Shown: piece after piece, positions 51,858-60,270 of the stretch
Numbering within the stretch: the stretch's first letter is position 1
Layout: every line of letters begins with the position of its first letter
From: an uncultured archaeon
GTDB taxonomy: Archaea; Asgardarchaeota; Thorarchaeia; Thorarchaeales; Thorarchaeaceae
DNA length: 63,692 bases
Assembly: GCA_964473825.1 (NCBI GenBank)
Contig: CAYYQL010000014.1
Span: forward strand, 1-63,692
Reading direction: 5' to 3'
Notes under the pieces: model-generated
Database searches by the model: none
Told to the model about the DNA's origin: nothing
The model's input: the letters and a program-made list of their open reading frames with translations, nothing else
Translations under genes and position numbers: made by a program

Positions 51858-53777
51858 TCACCGACTCTTCTTCAGAACAACCAGTACTACAACAGAGAAG
51901 GCCCCTATGATAATCCATACCATGCCTATAGGTGGACTGAAGAGCCCCGGGGGCGCTGCAAAGACTCCTGTTGTCTGAGCTGTGGTTGTGGTAGTTGCCG
52001 TGATGCTCCAGGTGGCGGCGCGAGCTAACTCCCCTCCCTCCGTCACCTCGTAGGCAGTTAGAATAAGGGCGGTATACCCTGCCACAACCAATCCGTATCT
52101 CATAGCCAGCCCTATGATTTCATTTTCGAGTTCTTCCGTGGAAGCTTCAAGGCTTGTTTGTCTGAGCAGACAGGATATCCTCTGATGAGCCCATAATCTT
52201 TCAATGTGCGGCTTGTCAGTATCGCCGATTCCATGCGAGTTTGCGTATTGTTCAGGTCCTGTCGAATAGTTGATTGACGTGCTTATACTGATCGACTCTT
52301 CATATCGGCCCGTTACCACAACTTCTGTCCCATTGAAGAATGGGCTATCTCCCAGTGGCTGAAGAGAATCTACCTCTGAGGCACCAGTGAAATGGATTTC
52401 GTACGAGTCAGCAATCGGGGTTGAGAAGAGTCTATAGAAGTCCATGAGTCTTGTCGCCGCATCATCAAACGGCTCGATGAATGTGAAGAAGCCGTCATTC
52501 TGGGCGGCAAGGTTTGCCATCAGCCCCTCATCGGCACCTGCCCCAAATGCCACAGTTGAAATAGAAACGCTAAGATCGTTCGCCTCGGCGGCTGCACTAA
52601 GAATCACTTCCGGTTGTGTGCTAACGCCAGAAGTTGGTTGTCCATCGGAGAGAACCAGCATGACCTTCGTGGTGTCGTCAGAGCTGAACATGTTCAGCCC
52701 ATCAACAACCGCCCCATAGAAGTTGGTAGAGCCCCCTGCAACGAGGCCGTTTATCCATGACTTGGCTTCAGTCTTCGATGAATCACTTGCCTGATGTGGT
52801 TCAAGCCAGAGAGATCGTACCTCAGTATTGAACTCGATAACATTGAACAGGTCGTCCTTTTTCATGTCGTCCACCATAGCACTGAATGCAATCTTTGCCT
52901 GCTCAATCGGAGTGCCAGTCATCGAGCCAGACGTATCGACAACGAACACGAACTGTCTGCGTGTGGCATCCTCAACTTCCGTGATTGTTGGGGCAAGAAG
53001 ATATACGAAGAAGTTCTCTGTACCATTGTTGTAGGTGAGTAGCTGGCTACCCCCTGTCTGGCGTTCCGTTGCGTATTGGATAGCAAGTCCGCTAGGGATC
53101 ACCATATTGGCATCTTCATATTCGACTCTGAGACCATCTGCAATCGGTGTGGCCAGAAAACCTGATATCCCCTCTACCGAGTAGCCGATGATTTCTCCAT
53201 AATGCGACACAATTGACATCTCAAGGCTGAAAGCTGACTCGATGGGTGCATCTTTGGATATTGGCAGATCCAAGAGATATCGACCTGAGCTGCGCGTTAG
53301 AAGTCCCTCGATGAAGACTGTGAGAATCGCCTCAGTGTTGTTCTCTACGTTGAGACTCACTTCGTAACCGTTCCAATGCCGCGTAACCAGCACCGCAGTC
53401 TTGTTCAGTGTCACGCTCTCGTTATATGTTTCAATTGCCTGTTGTTCTATTTCGACCTTGCCCCAATAGATGAGGTCTTTGAGGGTTACACACATGTTGC
53501 TGAGTCGAAGACCAGACTGTAATCCGAACAGCCAAGAGATCTCTCTATCAGTGTCAGACTCAGTATTGTCGTACACCATAGTATAGCTGAGGTTGGCATA
53601 GTTGTCGACGATAGATCCTTCAACCGATACACTGCTTGGTCCTAAGGTGTCTTGGGATACCAGCCTGGTGACTCCTGGTGTTTCACCTACTCTCAGACTT
53701 ACCGCTGTGGTGGCTGTTGTACCGAGCAACAACAATATCACCATACACAGGGGTGCGATTAGTTTCCTCCTTCTCAT
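51858..53777 (-). CDS. Membrane-anchored VIT + vWA domain protein (inter-alpha-trypsin inhibitor heavy-chain-like)
   Basis: Signal peptide; VIT-like N-domain; FVVDTSGSM MIDAS, GGSTN, LSDGQPT; ERLWA; Thr-rich linker, TM, KKSR. Confidence 0.9.
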   Translation of the reverse strand: MRRRKLIAPLCMVILLLLGTTATTAVSLRVGETPGVTRLVSQDTLGPSSVSVEGSIVDNYANLSYTMVYDNTESDTDREISWLFGLQSGLRLSNMCVTLKDLIYWGKVEIEQQAIETYNESVTLNKTAVLVTRHWNGYEVSLNVENNTEAILTVFIEGLLTRSSGRYLLDLPISKDAPIESAFSLEMSIVSHYGEIIGYSVEGISGFLATPIADGLRVEYEDANMVIPSGLAIQYATERQTGGSQLLTYNNGTENFFVYLLAPTITEVEDATRRQFVFVVDTSGSMTGTPIEQAKIAFSAMVDDMKKDDLFNVIEFNTEVRSLWLEPHQASDSSKTEAKSWINGLVAGGSTNFYGAVVDGLNMFSSDDTTKVMLVLSDGQPTSGVSTQPEVILSAAAEANDLSVSISTVAFGAGADEGLMANLAAQNDGFFTFIEPFDDAATRLMDFYRLFSTPIADSYEIHFTGASEVDSLQPLGDSPFFNGTEVVVTGRYEESISISTSINYSTGPEQYANSHGIGDTDKPHIERLWAHQRISCLLRQTSLEASTEELENEIIGLAMRYGLVVAGYTALILTAYEVTEGGELARAATWSITATTTTTAQTTGVFAAPPGLFSPPIGMVWIIIGAFSVVVLVVLKKSR

Positions 53778-54733: not shown

Positions 54734-55378
54734 CTACTTGATCGATAGTCCTGTGTCAGTGACTTGAAACCACCGGCCGCATTGTGGACAGTTGATGCCA
54801 CCTGAGCTGTCGAGTCGTGAAGGCCCAACCACAGACTGAGCTCCACAATGGGGACATGTCACATGCCTGTCATGGATTGATGCCAGTTCCTCTGACTCGC
54901 CAGATTCTTCAGGAAACTCGACTGCGACGTTTCGTCCGATATACCCCCCGGCAAGAGCTAAGATGAAGAATGCCACCACAAATGAACCTAAGCCAAGAAG
55001 CATTGTAGCTGCAAAGGCAATAATGACTAAATCAAGAACGGGGATTATCAGGAATTGTATGAATGTGAAGAGTATGCCCTGTCCAAGTACGCTGGTGATG
55101 CTCCTCCTCACTCTCGTTTTCCAGACCAGCTCCGTTACGAATGTGTTTACTCCACCGATTGTGACAAGATACCCGATGGTCACGAGGAGCAACAAGGTGA
55201 GCATCTCGGTAAAGTTGCTCATCAGCATCATCAGCAAGAAAAAGTCAAGCAAGTAGACAACCAGAAGTGATAGAATTGCAAACGGAATCCCATGAATGAA
55301 GTACCTGACCAAGTTGTCGACGTTTCGGTTCTCGTGATTACTCGTCTGTCCAATCTCCCACCGTTCGTTCTCATTCAT
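54734..55378 (-). CDS. 4-TM membrane protein with C-terminal zinc ribbon
   Basis: Four hydrophobic helices; CPHC...CPQC. Confidence 0.8.
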   Translation of the reverse strand: MNENERWEIGQTSNHENRNVDNLVRYFIHGIPFAILSLLVVYLLDFFLLMMLMSNFTEMLTLLLLVTIGYLVTIGGVNTFVTELVWKTRVRRSITSVLGQGILFTFIQFLIIPVLDLVIIAFAATMLLGLGSFVVAFFILALAGGYIGRNVAVEFPEESGESEELASIHDRHVTCPHCGAQSVVGPSRLDSSGGINCPQCGRWFQVTDTGLSIK

Positions 55379-55600
55379 GGTGGTTGTGTATGGACTTCCC
55401 GCATAAAAGCATGACCTCTTCTTGTCACTCAGTCACAGAATTAGCCTTCCCCCCACTGGCCAAACATACGCCCATTCCACCTTCTTGGTTGCTAGCTCCG
55501 AGGAAGACACCGAATGTTTTAAATGCGAATTATGAGGAGATAATAGTAGCTCATAGCACGCTTCATGACTGGGTAACCTTGTCGGTCACGAACCAGTAGC

Positions 55601-55606
55601 TTTAAC
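55601..55606 (+). promoter_or_regulatory. TATA-like box for putative ncRNA
   Basis: TTTAAC ends 25 nt before the GGG that opens the terminal stem, matching archaeal TATA-to-TSS spacing. Confidence 0.4.
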
Positions 55607-55631
55607 TACACGCGAGTCCCCGGTTAATTCC

Positions 55632-55779
55632 GGGCACACGAGGACGATGGGTCGACTGAGTACTTTGGCGTGCGGTGCCAGTCTTGCATAGGTTCTCAAA
55701 ATAGGCCTGTGGAGTGCAACGTGCAATTACTATTAGGTGGTGGCGCGGCAAGCGTTGCATTGCCCGGACTTGTGTGCCC
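55632..55779 (+). ncRNA. Putative structured ncRNA: kink-turn terminal stem plus four-way junction; family unrecognised
   Basis: P1 55632-42/55769-79; K-turn bulge GAC plus GA/GA; P2 55648-52/55762-66; P3 55654-64/55674-83; P4 55687-94/55704-11; P5 55713-21/55753-61; about 12 G-U pairs only valid on +; U-rich tail. Confidence 0.7.
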
Positions 55780-55950
55780 ACCTTATTCTTCTGATATCCT
55801 ACTATTAGCACAATTACGGATCATGACTATGGCGTCCACCTTTGTGTGTGGATGGTCACGGACGAAACGGACCATGTCTAGGACTCGAGCTGCTTCATGC
55901 GTCAATGGCAGAGATAAATAGGATTGGGACACAATCTCCAGCCGAATAAC

Positions 55951-56544
55951 ATGAAGGGCAAGAAGTCGATTCGTGCTGGGATGCCATTCCTGATGATTAC
56001 ACTTCTCATAGTTATAGGTGTATTGCCCTTCACAAGAGAAATGCCTCTTGATGTTGACACTGCCTACTCACTAAACAAGCTATCGCAAGACACGATCCGT
56101 CCGGAAATCAGCAGTTGGGGAATTGAAGGGAGACCCTCTGCGGGAGAGAGCTTCTTGGCATGGGCCAACGTGACCGACTATCAATCAGGTGTCAGGAATG
56201 TGTCACTGATACTGAACTCTGATAACGGAACTGTGAGAACGGTACAGAACTATCCTATGTTCGACAACGGAACACTATACGTGAGGCAGATTCCCGGTCT
56301 TCCTGTAAACCGAACATACCTACTTCGTGTGCTTGCGTTTGATCTGGTCAACAATTCTGCCATTAGCTACTCAAGGACTATCAATAGGTATCCGAGTCCT
56401 GACCCGCCGATAGACCCCAATATCACCATGCCGGTTGTTGTGACCAGCAGTTTCGTTTTGTTCGCGATTGTCTTGCTGCTTGCTTATGTGTACGACAGGC
56501 GACAACACAGTAGCCAGAGCATTGCCCCACCCCGTGAACCCTGA
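55951..56544 (+). CDS. Small surface protein (N-terminal hydrophobic segment, one Ig-like domain, C-terminal TM)
   Basis: WANVTD..SGVRNV, AFD..NN motifs; Pro-rich linker; TM plus RRQ; ATAAATA box upstream. Confidence 0.75.
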   Translation: MKGKKSIRAGMPFLMITLLIVIGVLPFTREMPLDVDTAYSLNKLSQDTIRPEISSWGIEGRPSAGESFLAWANVTDYQSGVRNVSLILNSDNGTVRTVQNYPMFDNGTLYVRQIPGLPVNRTYLLRVLAFDLVNNSAISYSRTINRYPSPDPPIDPNITMPVVVTSSFVLFAIVLLLAYVYDRRQHSSQSIAPPREP

Positions 56545-56610
56545 CTGTATGTATCATACACTCTCCTTATAATCGAAAACACAGGGTCTTGCTGCAGGCT
56601 GTGGACGAAG

Positions 56611-59379
56611 ATGCTGAGATATGCCTTCAAGCGGGTAATCCGTGGGTACCGACTGTTTGCCGCACTGACTGTAGGCGTACTCATCGCGACGACGTTCTTC
56701 GCCAGTATGATTATTTCAGCAGACGTTCTATCACGGGAGGCTCTTACTAGCGCCCTAGCTGAAATAGACTATGATGTACGTATCAATGCTAACAACATGA
56801 CTTGGACTAACACTCAGGCACAAGAACTGAATGAACTGCTTGAGGCGCTTCCTGAGGTATCAACTGCTCACCGCTATGGTCGCCTGCCATTTACATTCAA
56901 TGAGACATTAGGACAGTCATTCGATCTGATAGGACTTGAGAGCGACTCCACAGTGTGGCATACGCTAGAGCATGTGAATGGTAGTACTAGCCTTGGTGCG
57001 AACGAGACCTTGGTAGTTTCCAGTTCTGTGAATGCCTCGGTCTTTGATGTTGGCGATATAGTGGAGGTCCCGATTAGATATAGGACGACCGAATTCCCAT
57101 TCATTGAAACAGTCACACTGAATCTTACAATAGCAGGATTTGTCGATATTCCTGAGCGGACTGCTCGCCTCTTGAACCCCCCAAGGGCCATTGACCTAGG
57201 TTTTATCTCGATTGAGATCGGTAACTGGCGTGACTATAGCATACTTGTGGCTGACTGGACACTCACCTTCGAACCCGTAATCGAATGGTTTGGAACGCAG
57301 GAGAATGCAACCCAACTGGGCCTGGCTCAAGGTTTTTTGTGTCAATTGAACCGAGAGCTGGTCATTAATCCCTATGACTTGTCAGCCTCTTCGGCAAATG
57401 TAGGAAATGCCATCGCAAAGATCGAAGACCGCACTGTCGCCTACAATACGCAGGTAACGAACCTTGTTGGGAGAACTCTTTCTCTATTGTCTTTGACATC
57501 AGGAATCCTTGTTCTTGCCTTTGTAAGCCTGGCTGCACCCGTGATATTCATGAGCTGGTACTCTTCGACGATGTTGAGTGATGTCAGCTACAATCTCAGA
57601 CGACGTGAGTTTGGACTTCTCCAGACCAAGGGCTTTCAGCCGAAGGTCATCAAGCGTATGCTCGTCTTTGAGGGTCTCATAATCGGGCTCATCGGAGGTA
57701 TAGCAGGTCTCTCGCTGGGAACCATCCTTGCACATGTGATTGTGGATGTGGCGGTGGGCAATTTCCTTCTCGCCATGACAGGCAACTGGGTTAATGTCTT
57801 TGCTGTCATAGGTTTCGGACTATTCATCGCGTACTGGTCCGTACGCGGTCCGGCAGACAGAGCCTCGAAGCTCGAGCCTTTGGACACTCTCAAGCAGTAT
57901 GTCTACGTTGAGGAGCAGAGGCAATACAAGCGACTACTGCCCACAATCGCGCTGGTACTCGGGACCTACAAGATTGTTGCTTGGATTCTGGGAATCAATA
58001 TGCAGACTCTCCTTGGAGCCGCTGCAGGTTCTGGTCTGATTGTTATAATCGCCATAGCACTGTGGACTCCGGTAGACGCCTTTCTGAACTTCGCGGGCCC
58101 AATCATGTTTCTCTACGGTTTAACGAAGACTCTTCTAAGAGGATCTCAGAAGTTCCAGGAGTACGTGGTGCAGGCAGGCAGAAGATTCTTCGGAGCTTTT
58201 GGAAACCTGGCCACGAGAAATGTCAGACGAAATCCCGTGAGAAACGCGGCTCTCGTGTTTGTGGTTTCACTGATTGTGTCGTATGGCCTATTCAGTGTGG
58301 GGAGCCTGTTCTCAGAGCAGGACAGACTCAATCGGACGAATCTCTATGAGGTTGGCTCAGATGTCGCTGCCGTATTCAGCGCAGGAACCGATTTCTCTGA
58401 AAGCATCAACGCCATCAAGACGATTGATGGTGTTCAAGCAACTACTGTCGAGTATCATGTTTCCATGAGTTCAACCCGTGGAACAGTAACGACGCGGGGA
58501 ATATCGGCAGACAACTGGACAGAGGCAGCATTCTATGAAGAAAACTGGTTTTCAGGGGACACCATAGAAGGTATGTTGCAGGATTTCGCGGGGGCGAAAA
58601 TCATCCTGTCTGTTGCAGTGGCAAGGCAGCTTGAACTCCGAATCGGAAATCAGATTGCGCTACGTGCTCCAGACACCGGGACCTACCATCAGATGGAGAT
58701 AGTCGGGCTGGTCGGTTACGTGAGTCCCATTGAAGACGTTCTCGGGCAATTTGCGTTCAGTGGCTCTTATCCTTCATACATGCCGGCAGGATTCCTCAAA
58801 GATATCGGCTTGTTGCAGTATGCAGAGAGTCACGTACTCCTGAAGACGCAAACGAGCGTGAACGGGACACACATCGAACAGCGAATCCGCGAGATTGCCC
58901 CGGCTGTTTCTTCTACTGATTCGATGACCTCACGAACCACTGACGCTTCGAATAATCTGTTCCAGCTGGGGGGTACACGGGCACGATGGGTTGGCGTGGC
59001 ATTTGGTGCAGTCCTTGCTATACTCGGAACGGGACTTGTCGTGGGACTGACCTTGAAAGAGAAAGAATACGAAATCACTCTCCTAGCGGTCCGCGGCTTC
59101 ACAAAACGACAGGTGCTCAAGGTCTTGACTGCTGAGGTCATGGTGATGGTGCTCTTCTCCCTGATCTTAGGGATAGGTACTGGGTTTGTTCAGCTCTTCG
59201 GGGACATCGCGAATACTACTCAGAACGCACAGACGCTTGTCGTACCCCGAGTGGTCCTGACTCCTGTGTCAGTACTGAGTATGCTTGCCATAGGATTGGC
59301 AGTTGTGGTCTCGGCCACTGTTCCGGTGGTCTGGGCGGCACGATTCAATGAACAAAAGGTGGACGTTCTAAGAGAGTAG
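56611..59379 (+). CDS. ABC transporter permease, FtsX/MacB-like (duplicated)
   Basis: RRREFGLLQTKG and KEYEITLLAVRG motifs; two large extracytoplasmic domains; LATRNVRRN. Confidence 0.9.
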   Translation: MLRYAFKRVIRGYRLFAALTVGVLIATTFFASMIISADVLSREALTSALAEIDYDVRINANNMTWTNTQAQELNELLEALPEVSTAHRYGRLPFTFNETLGQSFDLIGLESDSTVWHTLEHVNGSTSLGANETLVVSSSVNASVFDVGDIVEVPIRYRTTEFPFIETVTLNLTIAGFVDIPERTARLLNPPRAIDLGFISIEIGNWRDYSILVADWTLTFEPVIEWFGTQENATQLGLAQGFLCQLNRELVINPYDLSASSANVGNAIAKIEDRTVAYNTQVTNLVGRTLSLLSLTSGILVLAFVSLAAPVIFMSWYSSTMLSDVSYNLRRREFGLLQTKGFQPKVIKRMLVFEGLIIGLIGGIAGLSLGTILAHVIVDVAVGNFLLAMTGNWVNVFAVIGFGLFIAYWSVRGPADRASKLEPLDTLKQYVYVEEQRQYKRLLPTIALVLGTYKIVAWILGINMQTLLGAAAGSGLIVIIAIALWTPVDAFLNFAGPIMFLYGLTKTLLRGSQKFQEYVVQAGRRFFGAFGNLATRNVRRNPVRNAALVFVVSLIVSYGLFSVGSLFSEQDRLNRTNLYEVGSDVAAVFSAGTDFSESINAIKTIDGVQATTVEYHVSMSSTRGTVTTRGISADNWTEAAFYEENWFSGDTIEGMLQDFAGAKIILSVAVARQLELRIGNQIALRAPDTGTYHQMEIVGLVGYVSPIEDVLGQFAFSGSYPSYMPAGFLKDIGLLQYAESHVLLKTQTSVNGTHIEQRIREIAPAVSSTDSMTSRTTDASNNLFQLGGTRARWVGVAFGAVLAILGTGLVVGLTLKEKEYEITLLAVRGFTKRQVLKVLTAEVMVMVLFSLILGIGTGFVQLFGDIANTTQNAQTLVVPRVVLTPVSVLSMLAIGLAVVVSATVPVVWAARFNEQKVDVLRE

Positions 59380-60270
59380 ATGAATATGGTATCTTACATT
59401 GAAACGAAGGACTTGGTTAAGGTCTATCGGCTTGGTGAAGTGGAAGTTCAGGCCTTGAGAGGTCTCTCCATGAAGATTGAGCAGGGTGAGATGGTTTCGA
59501 TTGTCGGACCAAGCGGTTCAGGCAAGACCACTCTCCTCAACATCATAGGCGGGTTGACTGGAGCCACGGCGGGGCAAACTTGGGTGGCAGGTCGGGAGAT
59601 CACAAATGCCAGTCCTGCCCAGCTCGGAATCATGCGCCAGAAGGTAGTCGGCCACATATTCCAGACGCTCAACCTCATCCCGACACTTACTGCCTATGAG
59701 AATGTGGAACTTCCCATGCTTGCGGTCAAGGCCCCTACTAGCGAACGAAAGACTCGAGTGAAGGAGCTTCTTGAGACCGTGGGTCTAGGTCTGCGGATGA
59801 ACCACAAACCGGACGAGCTCAGCGGTGGCGAGAAACAACGGGTAGCTATTGCCGCAGCTCTGGCCAACGACCCTCCAATCCTCATCTGTGACGAGCCCAC
59901 TGGAGACCTCGACACAGATACTGGTGCCATGATAATCGAGTTTCTGCATAGAGTGAACAAGGAGATGGGTAAGACTATCATAATCGTAACTCACGATCCC
60001 GCTCAGGCCAGACAGACCGAGAGAATCTATCGAATCATGGATGGTCGTATCATATCGGTCCAGAAGCCCAGCGAATCAGAAGAGGCAAACGCTGCGATGA
60101 GGGCGCAGATGTACAAAGACAGACTGGCTGAAACCAAGGCAGAACTCACAGACCTCAACTTGATGTTTCGTGAACAGAAGATATCTCCTGAGAATTTCGC
60201 AGAGCGTTACCAGAATCTCACTCAGACGAAACAGTTCTTGGAGCAAGAGCTCCACAGAATGGGTTTCTAG
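59380..60270 (+). CDS. ABC transporter ATP-binding protein (LolD/MacB-like) with C-terminal helical extension
   Basis: GPSGSGKT, LSGGEKQRVAIA, DEPTGDLD, VTHD. Confidence 0.95.
   Translation: MNMVSYIETKDLVKVYRLGEVEVQALRGLSMKIEQGEMVSIVGPSGSGKTTLLNIIGGLTGATAGQTWVAGREITNASPAQLGIMRQKVVGHIFQTLNLIPTLTAYENVELPMLAVKAPTSERKTRVKELLETVGLGLRMNHKPDELSGGEKQRVAIAAALANDPPILICDEPTGDLDTDTGAMIIEFLHRVNKEMGKTIIIVTHDPAQARQTERIYRIMDGRIISVQKPSESEEANAAMRAQMYKDRLAETKAELTDLNLMFREQKISPENFAERYQNLTQTKQFLEQELHRMGF

Follow-up and report, generated by a model that had tools for sequence, protein, structure and literature searches.

The sequence at 55632–55782 on the forward strand of the window, the whole 63,692-nt stretch of archaeal DNA analyzed here, almost certainly encodes a real structured RNA of a new family. 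The best explanation, and on balance a probable one, is a stand-alone gene whose small, compactly folded RNA product acts in trans and forms the core of an RNP in one family of Asgard archaea. The independence of the RNA and its action in trans are likely; its assignment as an RNP core, rather than as a ribozyme or a ligand sensor, is tentative. Asgard archaea are the closest prokaryotic relatives of eukaryotes, and to our knowledge, very few structured RNAs are known in them beyond the universal ones. At 151 nt, the RNA is a well-defined target, for which a covariance model and an aligned set of over 50 distinct sequences are available; its role may be that of an RNP subunit, of a sensor, or of a catalyst.

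Extent, fold, and conservation of the RNA

The locus is a 550-nt gap between two divergent ORFs. The original prediction had flagged 55632–55779 as an unannotated structured RNA, and a reading of the sequence at 55300–56100 found each element that it had listed; the stretch is a real structured-RNA gene. The start of the predicted span was correct, but the conserved unit extends 3 nt further, to 55782, and thereby includes an ACC tail. Both the start and end positions are common to all homologues. The features of the locus are as follows.

55601–55606, + strand: TATA-like box TTTAAC, 25 nt before the first G (from sequence reading)
55632–55782, + strand: whole conserved RNA, 151 nt, a full-length covariance-model match (131 bits)
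55632–55642, + strand: 5′ strand of the closing stem P1, pairing with 55769–55779; first 4 nt almost invariant
55643–55648, + strand: bulged strand of the K-turn, consisting of the 3-nt bulge, the G and A of the tandem sheared pairs, and the U of the U·G pair
55649–55652, + strand: 5′ strand of the inner closing stem P1b, with its partner at 55762–55765
55654–55683, + strand: hairpin 1, with an almost invariant 9–11-nt loop (55665–55675)
55687–55711, + strand: hairpin 2, with an A-rich loop
55713–55761, + strand: hairpin 3, with a 10-bp stem and a loop of ~30 nt
55735–55751, + strand: core of the hairpin-3 loop, two blocks, invariant and single-stranded according to the alignments
55762–55768, + strand: 3′ strand of P1b (55762–55765), G55766 of the U·G pair, and the unbulged G-A of the K-turn (55767–55768)
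55769–55779, + strand: 3′ strand of the closing stem P1
55780–55782, + strand: unpaired ACC tail, present in 53 of 53 complete distinct homologues
55783–55795, + strand: T-rich trailer, a likely archaeal terminator

The 11-bp closing stem and the three hairpins, joined by linkers of 1, 3, 1, and 0 nt, were recovered as described in the original prediction. About 12 G–U pairs had been counted, and the minimum-energy fold has 12 among its 54 pairs. The folding energy of the + strand (−63.2 kcal/mol) was better than that of dinucleotide shuffles (−51.1 ± 4.1 kcal/mol, z = −2.9), with three of the 200 shuffles reaching an equal value. The fold is also strand specific, as had been claimed, since the − strand gave a z value of +0.5. 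The additional pairs (3 + 6) drawn within hairpin 3 failed: only 45–51% of the corresponding alignment cells are paired, with zero compensatory change, and this segment is, on the alignments, an invariant single-stranded loop. A palindrome at 55618–55634 (5-bp arms, 6-nt spacer) overlaps with its 3′ arm the first three bases of the RNA and, in the primary transcript, might form at the expense of the closing stem. The palindrome is intact in the window and in G002, and the third member of the genus, G001, keeps the 5′ arm only.

The consensus obtained from a MAFFT alignment of 21 sequences contains 43 pairs, and 29 of them exhibit compensatory changes. A covariance model was built from the homologues, and 32 sequences were re-aligned to it. 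In this model-fitted alignment, which by its nature favours structure, 95.7% of the pair cells are standard pairs (32 homologues, 43 pairs), and the value drops to 31–47% when the partners are slid by 1–3 columns. The unfitted MAFFT alignment gives the same picture. Changes on both sides were found in 33 of the 43 pairs, and the observed covariation values were reached by none of 500 shuffles. By helix, such changes occur in six of the nine modeled pairs of P1, five of five in P1b, seven of nine in hairpin 1, six of seven in hairpin 2, and nine of ten in hairpin 3; the first three pairs of P1 are identical in all 31 complete sequences. At the level of sequence comparison, the closing stem, the inner stem, and each of the three hairpins are supported. 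A scan of all column pairs for extra tertiary pairs gave only weak correlations of the transition type, which are attributed to shared ancestry.

Conservation was compared with that of two universal RNAs over the same six genera.

This RNA: mean pairwise identity 67%, invariant positions 44%
SRP RNA: mean pairwise identity 74%, invariant positions 50%
RNase P RNA: mean pairwise identity 75%, invariant positions 51%

Judged by these values, the RNA is nearly as conserved across the family as SRP RNA and RNase P RNA. Outside the helices, the invariant positions fall in the hairpin-1 loop, the junction linkers, a few As of the hairpin-2 loop, and the two hairpin-3 blocks (55735–55751). The ends, namely the first four pairs of the closing stem and the ACC tail, are near-invariant as well; in the family relatives that were fetched, the first four and the last seven bases are identical, and the final three are the unpaired ACC. 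Conservation close to that of SRP RNA and RNase P RNA, together with the look of a tertiary-folded core, indicates that the RNA very likely does something specific.

The spacing of the two hairpin-3 loop blocks is 0, 3, or about 30 or more nt, depending on the genome, and the blocks therefore appear to act as separate elements. The loop evidently tolerates insertions. Some homologues carry an insertion of ~30–60 nt, at least partly a hairpin, between the blocks (L050:1501–1688 of G012, L225:1459–1676 of G352, and G389:C402:1993–2103), and in G017, 3 nt are missing at this site. A pseudoknot had been proposed between the loops of hairpin 1 (55669–55673) and hairpin 3 (55743–55747). It is possible in all 32 aligned sequences, and the bases involved never vary.

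The original prediction also described a standard K-turn that binds L7Ae-family proteins. In the window, the K-turn is present: the bulge (55643–55645) is followed by G-A at 55646–55647 facing 55767–55768, then by the U·G pair and an inner stem of four standard pairs (55649–55652 with 55762–55765). As a trait of the whole RNA family, the K-turn, and L7Ae binding with it, could not be upheld. When the closing stem was required to form a canonical stem, together with a 3-nt bulge and G-A on each strand, the consensus was found in only four of the 53 distinct homologues, which comprise three members of the window's genus and one from another genus. Most of the other homologues have, at the same site, an asymmetric loop with 5–9 nt on the 5′ strand and 0–3 nt on the 3′ strand, and in a few, the site shows no more than a small bulge or the 3′ side is longer. 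Because an asymmetric loop is kept with other sequences, the bend looks conserved, and the K-turn would be one local way of forming it. The K-turn thus looks like a lineage-specific variant of a conserved kink. L7Ae binding is plausible in the window's genus, given the match to the K-turn consensus, and on the same consensus it is not a defining property of the RNA family. The exchange of the K-turn for other asymmetric loops among the homologues should be useful for understanding the purpose of the kink.

Distribution and comparison with known RNA families

A BLAST search detected relatives of the RNA in most genomes of the window's family. The covariance model was run on 151 genomes sampled from the phylum and matched 24 of the 26 genomes of this family and none of the 124 others. 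The two remaining family genomes, one of which is 97% complete in 20 contigs, and the single genome of the sister family were without a match even at E values up to 1. The absence from a 97%-complete family genome implies that the RNA may not be essential. This genome (G010) belongs to the same genus as the RNA-positive G024, and its lack of a match reflects either a true loss or a gap in the assembly. Genomes with the RNA carry a single copy, as does the source genome, G000. A scan of 400 genomes of the phylum with the core pattern was positive for 59 of the 85 family genomes; six matches lay outside the family, and all of them failed the model. The exact core was present in 28 metagenome contigs, every one of which is a full-length model match. 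A loose form of the core pattern retrieved, among the matches listed, GC-rich bacterial chance matches, none of which was confirmed by the model, and the core pattern was not found in viral contigs. Among the genomes searched, the RNA is confined to one Asgard family, probably Thorarchaeota. This placement agrees with contig names that begin with SMTZ1, a prefix of the estuary samples in which that group was first described, and with the taxon label of a cluster of look-alike proteins.

The suggestion that the RNA belongs to a class outside the known families was borne out. Rfam 15 gave nothing at gathering scores across the whole window, and in a search of 55400–56000 at E values up to 10, no match fell within 55632–55782. 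A match to a box C/D snoRNA model at 55906–55986 (15.8 bits against a cut-off of 39) lies over the start of the next ORF and was dismissed as chance. The RNA was not recognized as a tRNA, to which it could not be matched originally either: ARAGORN found none in the window, Rfam gave no tRNA match at E values up to 10, and neither a T-loop nor an anticodon-loop signature was seen in the homologues, in which the hairpin-2 loop triplet varies. RNase P RNA, SRP RNA, and 5S rRNA, likewise unmatched in the original prediction, have no model match here, and each was detected above its own cut-off elsewhere in G000, with the three genes located on other contigs. No Rfam riboswitch family matched, and no description of this RNA was found in a literature search. 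Three further candidates were rejected. Box C/D and H/ACA guide RNAs do not fit the ACC tail of all homologues or the interior, which is a four-way junction without a guide pocket. The SRP Alu domain has a different branching order and gave no model match. For Y RNA, there was no TROVE/Ro60 gene in G000 (95.7% complete) and no Rfam Y RNA match.

Gene layout and RNA ends

The promoter-like box and the T-rich trailer attributed to the gene were both confirmed, with TTTAAC located 25 nt before the first G. A BRE/TATA-like box lies 22–38 nt before the first G in the ~20 homologues with a pattern match, and this gap is 24–25 nt in the window's genus. In the SRP RNA genes, the corresponding gap looks constant (~22–23 nt in four of six upstream sequences, counted by hand). 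Archaeal transcription starts ~22–25 nt downstream of the box, and the variable gap therefore means that most homologues should carry a 5′ leader of up to ~15 nt. From the same spacing, almost no leader should be present in the window's genus.

At the other end, the base after ACC is T in 40 and C in 13 of the 53 homologues, and never A. The first 15 nt after the RNA contain 53% T (mean over homologues). The last seven bases of the RNA are identical to the end of the tRNA-Val, Met, Pro, and Gly genes of G000, up to C75. The helix, the A, and the CC are invariant, but the final A is never encoded, whereas nearly all plausible ARAGORN tRNA genes of G000 encode the full CCA and have comparable T-rich trailers behind it. 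Introns are listed for about half of the ARAGORN tRNA calls in G000, and a few calls with introns of 460–1900 nt look like false positives. A tRNA-Sec gene is found on contig C35 of G000, and the source organism accordingly probably uses selenocysteine.

The SRP RNA genes share this design of the ends. In all six family genomes examined, they have a terminal helix formed by the 5′ and 3′ ends and ACC, followed by T or C. The trailer of the G000 SRP RNA gene (L025:1480–1830, contig C2) is nearly identical to 55783–55795 of the window; the SRP RNA loci of the other five genomes are L200–L204. Because the ACC end is also present on SRP RNA genes, the overhang seems to be a shared stable-RNA design and not a mark of tRNA alone. 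Both are stable small-RNA genes with a comparable family-wide conservation. They differ in architecture, as three hairpins emanate from one junction here, while helices 2–5 are nested in SRP RNA.

A metatranscriptome contig of 185 nt from a salt lake covers 55640–55811 with two differences and includes neither flanking gene. Its 5′ edge falls within ~5–8 nt of the predicted 5′ terminus, and on the other side it extends ~30–40 nt past the ACC. The contig is a weak hint of a discrete short transcript with a 3′ trailer, as contigs from sequencing runs carry no information on transcript ends or levels, their uncovered parts have no meaning, and DNA may contaminate RNA libraries. DNA runs from other sites yielded longer contigs that span the region and contain the copies of relatives.

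In the window, the RNA is followed at 55924–60270 by genes for a protein of ~190–206 aa (N-terminal membrane segment, no Pfam match), a 922-aa FtsX-type permease, and a 296-aa ORF that starts one base past the permease stop codon. This block is probably an ABC exporter operon. The look-alikes of the ~190-aa protein in the protein atlas were unnamed archaeal proteins only, and the permease is of the ordinary FtsX type; neither protein points to RNA biology. About 2 kb upstream (51858–53777, − strand) is a gene for a 639-aa protein that contains VIT and von Willebrand A domains, for which no link to the RNA was found. In a search of G000 for antisense targets of the invariant loops, only scattered matches with 1–3 mismatches appeared. 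Att-like partial copies of either RNA end were absent from G000, and there is thus no sign of an integration-site role.

Proposed architecture and alternative explanations

Based on the alignments, the RNA is a closing stem with an asymmetric loop at a fixed site that leads into a tight four-way junction with three hairpins. The internal loop would bend the closing stem, and in the window's genus it would do so as a standard K-turn with a predicted L7Ae site. The short linkers (1, 3, 1, and 0 nt) would force coaxial stacking. Hairpins 1 and 3, whose stems keep a constant and nearly equal length (9 and 10 pairs), would lie next to each other, and the invariant loops of the two may join, for example through the 5-bp contact between 55669–55673 and 55743–55747. 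The bend in the closing stem may bring the invariant helix end and the tail back toward the core. All of these contacts would be made by bases that do not vary and that accordingly give no covariation signal. The joined loops would form one conserved surface for a partner, most likely a protein, and the RNA would serve as the RNP core. Trimming of the short 5′ leader, whose length varies, is probable, with RNase P as a possible enzyme, and the mature end would be a helix with a 3′ ACC overhang. Of the two readings offered originally, that of an independent L7Ae-bound RNA of a possibly new class is supported with respect to the independent new class (outside Rfam, single-copy, with its own box and trailer) and is not supported with respect to L7Ae as a family-wide partner (K-turn in four of 53).

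The other original reading, a riboswitch-like leader, is unlikely in our assessment. Here, the RNA would act in cis on the downstream operon of the ~190-aa membrane protein and the FtsX-type ABC permease, either through termination in the T-rich stretch or through processing. Neighborhoods were compared over 29 loci of ~3 kb. The gene for the ~190-aa protein follows the RNA on the same strand at 15 loci (directly at 14) from at least eight genera, mostly with the permease gene after it, while the upstream genes change and are more varied than the downstream genes. Where a downstream ORF was called (28 loci), it has the orientation of the RNA in 26, and a link in cis therefore survives as a minority possibility. 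Riboswitch aptamers often contain K-turns and tight junctions of several helices. The RNA resembles the SAM-I and lysine riboswitch aptamers in its multi-helix junction, where a kinked arm would bring distant elements into contact, and in its invariant loops and junctions between covarying stems. The kink, however, is located here in the closing stem and not in an inner arm, and Rfam gave no match to such aptamers. About half of the loci have unrelated genes downstream, which encode a ferredoxin-domain protein, an LRR protein, a Trp/Tyr-tRNA synthetase, a response regulator, unnamed proteins, or, on the opposite strand, a peptidase; this is not a coherent regulated gene set. The single copy per genome also argues against a leader, as does the invariant end of the closing stem, because the P1 stems of riboswitches usually vary freely. 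An alternative terminator/antiterminator pairing was not seen, and the contig from the RNA library ends before the ORF. No steady neighbor encoding an RNA-binding protein was found among the 29 loci.

The identity of the RNA end with tRNA genes raises the idea of a tRNA-end mimic or sensor, which we regard as quite improbable. The UGGU within the invariant loop of hairpin 3, complementary to ACCA, could hold the RNA's own 3′ end or uncharged tRNAs with A73, on the same principle as the T-box bulge in bacteria. Like tRNA, the RNA has a four-way junction with short linkers, a 5′ leader of short and variable length, and a T-rich trailer; its first pairs and ACC are invariant while the remaining stem covaries, and the kink of the closing stem could fold the end back toward the core. 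The RNA is nevertheless twice as long as a tRNA and displays no D-, anticodon-, or T-loop signature in addition to the negative ARAGORN and Rfam results, and the triplet of its hairpin-2 loop is not conserved. The absence of the encoded final A sets it apart from the tRNA genes of the same genome, the ACC end is not specific to tRNA because SRP RNA genes have it too, and all bases concerned are invariant, so that they provide no covariation signal. The more specific form, an archaeal reader of tRNA 3′ ends whose own tRNA-like ACC(A), folded back by the kink, sits on the hairpin-3 UGGU in competition with uncharged A73 tRNAs, is very unlikely; if true, it would be the Asgard counterpart of the bacterial T-box principle, acting in trans or on the co-oriented downstream gene. 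There is even less to recommend a ribozyme, such as one that cuts itself free of the 5′ leader. The invariant loops and junctions amid covarying helices resemble catalytic cores, and the first base of the conserved unit is a fixed G despite a ~15-nt variation in promoter distance, but RNase P cleavage accounts for these observations with no need for a new activity, and no self-cleaving ribozyme family in Rfam matched. The remotest reading is that of a divergent representative of an established family (SRP Alu domain, RNase P RNA, Y RNA, or an H/ACA or C/D guide) or a small protein gene. The helix-plus-ACC end is in common with SRP RNA, the strands of the K-turn each come within one or two changes of the C and D boxes, and ORFs of 69 and 83 aa overlap the region. 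Against this, Rfam found nothing on the RNA at E values up to 10, the true SRP, RNase P, and 5S genes are elsewhere in the genome, the TROVE/Ro60 gene expected beside a Y RNA was not found, and the tail is ACC instead of the ACA of a guide RNA, whose pocket is absent as well. The many 1- and 2-nt indels and the compensatory pair changes fit an RNA and not a reading frame.

The RNA can also be compared with orphan structured RNAs such as raiA, OLE, and ROOL, which are lineage-restricted and well conserved and have a complex fold. It shares these properties, as well as having no assigned partner. It differs from them in being archaeal, small (151 nt), and restricted, among the genomes searched, to one Asgard family.
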